Sequence record: PQ352352.2
Direction: 5' to 3' (one strand)
Length of the DNA stretch: 64,000 nucleotides
DNA from: Escherichia phage vB_EcoM_PTE-Eco15
Positions 12,059 to 12,395 of the stretch are shown in pieces. Numbering within the stretch: the stretch's first letter is position 1; every line of letters begins with the position of its first letter. The translations under genes and the position numbers were made by a program. The notes beneath the pieces are model-generated. The model was given only the letters and a program-made list of their open reading frames with translations, was not told where the DNA came from and ran no database searches.

Positions 12059-12395
12059 AGATGATTTAGATTTAGATCTAGAAATTATCGATGAATCCCC
12101 CTCTTCGGAGGGGGAAGAAGAAAGAAAAGAACGTCTTTTTAATGAGTCTCTTAAGATAATTAAATCCGCTATGGAAAATGTTATCCAGGAGATTGTCATT
12201 AAACTAGAAGATGGTTCTACACATATAGTGTATGTAACTAAACTGGATTGGGTTGATGGAAAGGTTGTAATGGACTTTGCTGTTCTTGACCAAGAAAGAA
12301 AAGCTGAGTTAGCTCCTCATGTAGAAAAATGTATTACAATGCAACTACAAGATGCATTTAATAAAAGGTCAAAGAAAAAATTTAAATTCTTTTAA
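12051..12395 (+). CDS. 40: gp40 (head assembly protein)
   Basis: 114 codons from ATG overlapping uvsX stop; position between uvsX and 41; ORF track extends to an upstream GTG. Confidence 0.6.
   Translation: MNKDDLDLDLEIIDESPSSEGEEERKERLFNESLKIIKSAMENVIQEIVIKLEDGSTHIVYVTKLDWVDGKVVMDFAVLDQERKAELAPHVEKCITMQLQDAFNKRSKKKFKFF

Follow-up and report, generated by a model that had tools for sequence, protein, structure and literature searches.

Escherichia coli possesses differential-decay elements, of which malE-malF is the type, that consist of stable hairpins without a U-tract and have RNA 3' ends directly after them (Dar and Sorek 2018, PMC5927463). Of 26 such protective stem-loops, 17 are embedded in the downstream open reading frame (ORF); their wobble positions are constrained, and they are conserved in related species (PMC5927463). 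In phage T4, a hairpin with the CUUCGG motif placed at the 5' end stabilizes the gene 32 mRNA, as cited in a passage of PMC8948821.

The hairpin that we discuss here is itself no stranger: it has been known in the T4 literature for decades. GenBank record X03099 (T4 uvsX) carries exactly this inverted repeat with the annotation “stem-loop structure pot. transcription terminator,” dated 1985. According to the legend of Fig. 5B in Kim et al. 2025 (PMC12152347, citing Hinton 1989), the 358 nt that precede gene 41 contain a stem-loop with an in vivo RNA 3' end directly past it. In the relevant passage of the same paper, also citing Hinton 1989, E. coli rho (nusD) mutants have more RNA ends upstream of gene 41, and less gene 41 mRNA and protein. 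This study, from the Hinton laboratory, reports in addition that GoF(D25Y) raises expression post-transcriptionally through a longer RNA half-life, and that the full 358-nt region upstream of gene 41 gave the strongest reporter stabilization by GoF(D25Y). The nusD effect is now ascribed to nuclease attack on delayed-early T4 RNA and not to extra termination (Hinton 2010 review, PMC2988021), an attack that Rho, Rop, or mutant ComC-alpha/GoF can prevent; it is read as a loss of RNA protection because Rop and extra mutant Rho rescue growth (PMC2988021). We found no genome-wide 3'-end map of T4 in the literature. What is new here is the cross-genus evidence drawn from comparing sequences: covariation that is compensatory and even non-synonymous, stems with a shifted register or with swapped arms, and counterparts that are intergenic.

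The uvsX-40-41 locus

The window, by which we mean the whole stretch of 64,000 nucleotides that was analyzed, comes from Escherichia phage vB_EcoM_PTE-Eco15 (PQ352352.2). Its uvsX-40-41 locus is of the Tequatrovirus (T4-like) type, with 98.7% identity to T4 and 99.6% to Yersinia phage fPS-90 (521 nt). The uvsX gene (10877..12058, + strand) encodes a RecA-like recombinase of 393 aa, identified from the ORF list, the Pfam families RecA and T4_UVSX_C, and the T4 annotation; its stop codon (12056-12058, + strand) stands 38 nt upstream of the hairpin. Gene 40 (12051..12395, + strand; ORF list, T4 annotation, and Pfam) encodes a head vertex assembly chaperone of 114 aa, in which the Pfam head-chaperone domain covers residues 44-99 only. 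It begins with the ATG at 12051, and, as read from the sequence, its start overlaps the uvsX stop in ATGAATAA (12051..12058, + strand). The Shine-Dalgarno-like GGAAG upstream of gene 40 is weak. The overlap has the layout of translational coupling, and the two genes may be coupled. Gene 41, for the replicative helicase, follows with a GTG start (12405..13832, + strand; ORF list and T4 annotation) and a strong Shine-Dalgarno sequence, AAGGAG, at 12394-12399 (+ strand).

The start of gene 40 deserves some care. A start located 3' of the hairpin was considered and rejected: the sole in-frame candidate, ATG 12171, has no Shine-Dalgarno sequence and would lose conserved residues, and the acidic N-terminus of gp40, which is conserved as protein across genera, likewise argues against it. 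No copy of the late-promoter consensus TATAAATA lies close to gene 40 (the first ones are as far off as 17955 and 28303), and we therefore propose no late gene 40 transcript that starts between uvsX and the hairpin.

Two observations on the surroundings may be recorded. Upstream, just 301 nt (10576-10876) separate the beta-glucosyltransferase gene (9520-10575) from uvsX, with no ORF of more than 71 aa; T4 carries the homing-endonuclease gene segA (NC_000866 23570-24235) in this gap, so the present phage is one without segA. Downstream, a long hairpin of 14 pairs (13839-13874, -17.7 kcal/mol) lies directly 3' of the gene 41 stop and before a Shine-Dalgarno-like GAGGAG, and may be another 3' or intercistronic element.

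The hairpin and its immediate context

The RNA hairpin UCCCCCUC-UUCG-GAGGGGGA occupies 12096..12115 on the + strand and was characterized by its sequence, folding, uniqueness, a codon test, and covariation. The preliminary description of this DNA had reported a 7-bp CCCCCUC-UUCG-GAGGGGG hairpin inside gene 40, and this is borne out: the core CCCCCTCTTCGGAGGGGG forms 7 bp at 12097-12114 on the + strand, to which T12096 and A12115 add an eighth pair. Its position is 38 nt past the uvsX stop and +46 in gene 40. The C(UUCG)G tetraloop lies at 12104-12107 in the closing context CUC-UUCG-GAG, all eight pairs are Watson-Crick, and six of the eight are GC, a GC-rich stem as in intrinsic terminators. 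The core has a single match in the window, even with three mismatches allowed. RNAfold formed the hairpin in all contexts folded (51, 141, and 358 nt), with the local element at about -16.7 kcal/mol.

Because gene 40 is read through the stem, the hairpin is also a coding sequence. Its codons, TCC CCC TCT TCG GAG GGG GAA, specify SPSSEGE, residues 16-22 of gp40, within the stretch ...DESPSSEGEEE.... These residues belong to the acidic N-terminal extension of gp40 and lie outside the Pfam domain.

Directly 3' of the stem stands the purine-rich tail AGAAGAAAGAAAAGAACGUC (12116..12135, + strand), which is no U-tract; the tail reads AGAAGAAAG / AGAAGAAAGAAA. A terminator scan of 9000-15000 returned no + strand site, its sole site being on the - strand at 12318-12298, and an Rfam covariance-model scan of 10500-14000 at E<=1 gave no match. 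The C>G bias of a rut-like region is absent as well: the 100 nt downstream hold 11 C and 20 G, and their C-G value ranks at the 20th percentile within the window. Two candidate protein sites were also considered and set aside. An RNase III site was rejected because 8 bp is much too short for one, and a possible RegB site, the GGAG at 12107-12110, is buried in the stem and missing in Dhakavirus; we judge it to be a coincidence of Glu-Gly codons.

Other hairpins of the window

Hairpins of this kind are far more frequent in the window than its composition would lead one to expect. In 100 dinucleotide-preserving shuffles of the window, stems of seven Watson-Crick pairs (at least five of them GC) with a 4-nt loop had a mean of 0.03, versus seven observed, and GC stems with a TTCG loop had 0.01, again versus seven observed. 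Other GC-rich TTCG hairpins are found on the + strand at 2591, 4759, 18243, 28875, 34156, 34373, and 37036. All seven start 0-60 nt past a stop codon and lie outside the long ORFs, in keeping with the preliminary description, which had the same hairpin type serving between genes elsewhere in this genome.

Three further hairpins, with other loops, are worth noting. At 17330-17349, GGACGCC-GAAA-GGCGUCU followed by UUUU (-12.7 kcal/mol) stands 35 nt past the stop of gene 56 (16780-17295) and some 45 nt inside a 224-aa ORF (17285-17959) that overlaps this gene; the ORF has a match to phrog_314 (homing endonuclease) and none in Pfam. Judging by its sequence, the hairpin looks like a real terminator and would limit expression of the endonuclease. 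It resembles the gene 40 hairpin in its GC stem, its tetraloop, its distance of some 35 nt past a stop, and its place about 45 nt into an overlapping ORF, and differs from it in the GNRA loop and UUUU tail. At 59985-60004, UGGCAGCC-GGGA-GGCUGCCA (-15.9 kcal/mol) lies within the + strand ORF 59869-60195. Finally, a perfect AU-rich 16-bp hairpin (1209-1244, -17.1 kcal/mol) ends directly before ATGGAGG.

Selection on the structure

The hairpin of gene 40 is clearly under selection and is not a product of chance. The codons that build its stem are rare within their families in the window's long ORFs (CCC 2.6%, GGG 5.1%, TCC 5.2%, TCG 6.4%, GAG 14%), and the fraction of synonymous recodings that reach the observed folding energy is 0.0002 (0.02%). 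When the same synonymous-recoding test was applied to 14 lineage representatives, the fractions ranged from 0 to 0.04. Two pairs of the stem, 12098-12113 and 12101-12110, set one wobble position against another, and both show C-G to U-A double changes that are synonymous on both sides: the pair 12101-12110 has become U-A in Mosigvirus (CCT...GAA), and 12098-12113 has done so in a Klebsiella phage (TCT...GGA). The covariation set consisted of the nine distinct lineages that align without gaps. In these, the seven core pairs are paired in 100% and four of the eight pairs change on both sides; none of 500 shuffles matched the observed values, and all slid registers scored worse.

The two strands offer a further handle. 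Where G-U pairs occur, the sense RNA folds better than the antisense (Gaprivervirus, -22.0 versus -12.0 kcal/mol; Marfavirus, -18.5 versus -14.2 kcal/mol), and the object of selection is thus the mRNA-sense RNA. In T4 all pairs are Watson-Crick, and the strands fold about equally (-16.7 versus -15.8).

In Tequatrovirus, the 60 nt around the stem are identical in 356 of 500 genomes. A search of IMG/VR by pattern for variants within the species yielded only 3 loci, and four variant GenBank genomes were sampled instead; in all four of these Tequatrovirus genomes the 7-bp core is intact. The ESh34 variant has lost the outer U-A pair and nothing else of the stem. In Shigella phage ESh25 (L057 1-180; ON528735, marked UNVERIFIED), the loop is inverted, giving CCCCCTC-CGAA-GAGGGGG, with the stem intact and one residue changed from S to E; this flipped palindrome could be a DNA-level inversion or an assembly artifact. 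An IMG/VR Mosigvirus-like contig (L020 643-662) has a UUUG loop in place of UUCG, with Ser replaced by Leu in gp40, on an unchanged stem; the identity of the UNCG loop is therefore less constrained than the stem.

Versions of the hairpin across genera

Some 1150 phage genomes carry gp40; the comparison covered 12 GenBank and 38 IMG/VR loci. Across the genera of T4-like enterobacterial phages, at least nine sequence versions of the hairpin are found at the same place, and in all Tevenvirinae-like loci it lies 32-61 nt past the uvsX stop. Gelderlandvirus and some Karamvirus have CCCCCUC-UCAG-GAGGGGG, and a Klebsiella phage has UCUCCCUC-GGAA-GAGGGAGA. In Marfavirus the register is shifted by 2 nt (AAGCUCCCCUU-GAAG-AAGGGGAGUUU), and in the L034 locus (UUCCUCCCC-UUCG-GGGGAGGAG) the compensation alters the amino acids, with SSPSGEE versus SPSSEGE. 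The arms are swapped in Gaprivervirus (GGAGGGAGC-UAAG-GCUCCUUCU, with three G-U pairs) and likewise in Dhakavirus (GAGGGUC-CUAGU-GACCCUC, plus a variant). The gp40 peptide itself varies (SPSSEGE, APSQEGE, SPSEEGD, APLEEGE, SSPSGEE, AEGAKAPS, EEGPSDPR, and EEGHYDPL), and every one of these versions encodes a stem. A U-tract is absent after every version of the hairpin that is embedded in a coding sequence, and several genera have a short UUU two nt past the stem (AAUUUGA). The comparison shows the RNA structure as the conserved entity, with the N-terminus of gp40 seemingly accommodating the stem.

In other relatives the hairpin lies outside gene 40. The gp40 of Krischvirus (FL20) and of Pseudotevenvirus (CfP1) starts about 24 residues later and is without the N-terminal extension. 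In FL20 (L052 453-475), the hairpin AAAGGGGC-UACGU-GCCCCUUU occupies the uvsX-40 spacer and is followed by more U (GCCCCUUUUUC), and in CfP1 (L053 448-463), GGGGGC-GAAA-GCCCCC occupies the same spacer. As an aside, the submitters of CfP1 annotated its spacer hairpin as a terminator on the opposite strand. Aeromonas phage Aswh_1 (L013 369-382) has GGUGG-GAAA-CCACC just upstream of a short gene 40, and there the preceding gene is not uvsX. In the Acinetobacter-phage relatives, uvsX and gene 40 are adjacent with no hairpin, so the element is not indispensable.

The simplest reading of these arrangements would be that the hairpin is an intercistronic RNA element over which the gene 40 ORF of the Tevenvirinae has been laid. 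A more far-reaching proposal, which we regard as possible and put forward tentatively, is that the hairpin is an ancient control element of uvsX-40-41 overprinted by the Tevenvirinae gene 40. The stem, and not protein function, would then dictate seven residues of gp40, including the coordinated swaps (P to S, S to P, E to G, and G to E), and RNA-binding proteins of the Rho/Rop/GoF type may act on the hairpin as their cis site and there control the amount of message that gets to the gp41 helicase.

What the hairpin probably does

Our preferred explanation, to which we give somewhat better than even chances, is that the hairpin forms the 3' end of the uvsX cistron within the polycistronic uvsX-40-41 mRNA and serves, from inside the downstream ORF, as a 3'-exonuclease barrier of the malE-malF type. 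It stands 38 nt past the uvsX stop, just where this genome puts its intercistronic hairpins, and hence most plausibly belongs to the uvsX 3' end; this telling piece of context had escaped the preliminary description. The RNA downstream would be cut, or transcription would end further on; host 3'-to-5' exonucleases (PNPase, RNase II, and RNase R) would degrade the RNA back to the C(UUCG)G stem and halt there. A discrete, stable uvsX mRNA with its 3' end just past the stem would be left. The supply of UvsX would be partly uncoupled from that of gp40 and the gp41 helicase, and the ratio of uvsX to 40/41 could vary in the course of infection, or where protection of the downstream RNA is poor. Gene 40, which starts at the uvsX stop codon, is translated straight through the hairpin, and the stem would thus dictate its codons 16-22, with Pro and Ser coming from the CCN/UCN arm and Glu and Gly from the GAG/GGN arm. 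Since ribosomes on gene 40 must melt the stem, the barrier would be weakened. We infer both the barrier step and its benefit to uvsX expression.

Existing transcript data can be brought to bear on this explanation. When the 358 nt upstream of gene 41 are folded, no strong local stem-loop forms apart from the UUCG hairpin. For this reason, together with the X03099 annotation, we infer that the stem-loop named in the legend of Fig. 5B in PMC12152347 is the gene 40 hairpin. The preliminary description had made its case depend on transcripts ending at this position, and that legend places a 3' end past the stem-loop. RNA-seq of wild-type T4 on wild-type E. coli B606 at 5 min gave 54139 reads for uvsX (1176 nt), 13723 for gene 40 (345 nt), and 61535 for gene 41 (1428 nt) (Table S1, PMC6024815). 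These counts correspond to 46.0, 39.8, and 43.1 reads per nt, or 1 : 0.86 : 0.94, at one time point and with gene-level resolution; the excess of uvsX RNA over 40/41 at that single time point is 6-14%. It follows that any differential stabilization is small at 5 min, or becomes visible only later or under stress. The near-flat profile and the missing U-tract together indicate that, early in an ordinary infection, the hairpin does not terminate or attenuate transcription efficiently.

The leading alternative, which we consider unlikely, is a transcriptional attenuator or pause: the hairpin would stop RNA polymerase or make it pause, possibly helped by Rho, NusA, or a phage factor, and would limit read-through from uvsX into 40/41. 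This would agree with the X03099 annotation as a potential transcription terminator, with the 3' end just past the stem-loop, and with the larger amount of RNA that ends short of gene 41 when rho is mutant (nusD), both given in PMC12152347. The U-run GCCCCUUUUUC of the Krischvirus intergenic counterpart, which is like that of an intrinsic terminator, points the same way, as does the UUU two nt past the stem in several genera (AAUUUGA). However, the T4-type tail AGAAGAAAG has no U-tract, the terminator scan was blank on the + strand, RNA-seq density at 5 min is flat across the site, and the next 100 nt (11 C, 20 G) are not rut-like; moreover, the nusD effect is now one of RNA protection (PMC2988021), and GoF(D25Y) acts on RNA half-life (PMC12152347). 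The preliminary description had offered an attenuator, an RNA processing site, or a pause affecting 40/41. Some such effect finds backing in the 3' end and the loss of gene 41 expression in rho mutants, as relayed in PMC12152347, whereas a strong attenuator or terminator does not sit with the lack of a U-tract and the flat RNA-seq. The element is better regarded as the 3' hairpin of uvsX than as an attenuator of gene 40. A third explanation would place the function at the ribosome: a stem at +46, just past the initiation footprint of the gene 40 AUG, might slow ribosomes or cut coupled re-initiation and keep gp40 low. Gene 40, whose Shine-Dalgarno sequence is weak, relies on the ATGAATAA overlap, and a head-assembly chaperone is required in small amounts. 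Yet an 8-bp stem is easily unwound by a ribosome, and the hairpins of Krischvirus, Pseudotevenvirus, and the Aeromonas phage are intergenic, upstream of the gene 40 start, so the place has been kept there without being translated. A translational brake would also leave the mapped 3' end unexplained, and we find it improbable.

One could also picture the hairpin at the opposite end of an RNA, where, after a cut just upstream of the stem, it would shield the 40-41 message from RNase E as a 5'-terminal structure. For such a 5' stabilizer of the gene 41 message there is the precedent of the 5' CUUCGG hairpin of T4 gene 32 mRNA, as cited in part of PMC8948821; the full 358-nt region was the one most strongly stabilized by GoF(D25Y) in reporters (PMC12152347), and the Aeromonas phage retains a hairpin upstream of gene 40 even though its preceding gene is not uvsX. 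The end that the legend in PMC12152347 reports at the stem-loop is, however, a 3' end and not a 5' end, and cleavage at this point would take away the gene 40 start codon, which makes a 5' stabilizer quite improbable. Finally, the hairpin might have no function as RNA: it could arise incidentally from a conserved Pro-Ser...Glu-Gly peptide in gp40, or be a palindrome of the DNA, such as a cruciform or a hotspot of recombination. Codons for Pro/Ser are complementary to those for Glu/Gly, and in this way a PS..EG peptide can give rise to a stem; the change of TTCG to CGAA in ESh25 is the signature of a palindrome flip in DNA; and the all-Watson-Crick T4 stem folds about equally on both strands (-16.7 versus -15.8). 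But with the peptide held fixed the observed codon choice is still in the top 0.02%, the stem is conserved while the peptide is not (eight versions), G-U pairs favor the sense RNA in several genera, the residues lie outside the Pfam domain, and the hairpin has intergenic counterparts. We regard the absence of an RNA function as highly improbable.

For T4 biology, the element matters in that it marks where the recombinase message parts from the helicase message. It is tied to a long-standing puzzle: what makes T4 fail on rho(nusD) hosts, and by what route goF mutants restore growth. In addition, it is a clean phage example of dual coding, in which a short RNA structure has long been kept by synonymous as well as non-synonymous compensation. 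An RNA structure that migrates between intergenic and coding status makes a useful test case, and the mechanism itself is not new.

Comparison with known systems

The gene 40 hairpin resembles intrinsic terminators in its GC-rich stem-loop, the size and energy of which are like a terminator's; as a potential terminator X03099 indeed annotated it in 1985. The gene 40 hairpin differs from them in having no U-tract and no appreciable drop in RNA coverage at 5 min. [quoted passage not shown] Unlike at those hairpins, there is no C>G bias downstream, and the nusD phenotype is now understood as lost RNA protection (PMC2988021).

The C(UUCG)G intercistronic hairpins of T4 (Tuerk et al. 1988, as relayed in parts of PMC4371310 and PMC8948821) are identical to it in loop and in closing pair, and like it they have GC-rich stems and lie a few tens of nt past a stop codon; their + strand examples in the window number seven besides this one. 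It is unlike them in being read through by the next ORF, and also in that its stem is pyrimidine-first (CCCCCUC), which enables it to encode Pro-Ser/Glu-Gly.

From elements of the malE-malF type, the gene 40 hairpin departs in standing nearer to the downstream start codon (46 nt versus 107 +/- 56 nt), in belonging to a phage, and in the small excess of its upstream cistron, as seen at one RNA-seq time point. It is like them in having no U-tract, in lying past the 5' cistron and inside the next coding sequence, in the constraint on its wobble positions, and in being kept in relatives. If the stem-loop in the figure legend of PMC12152347 is indeed this hairpin, it would also share with them an RNA 3' end directly past the stem.
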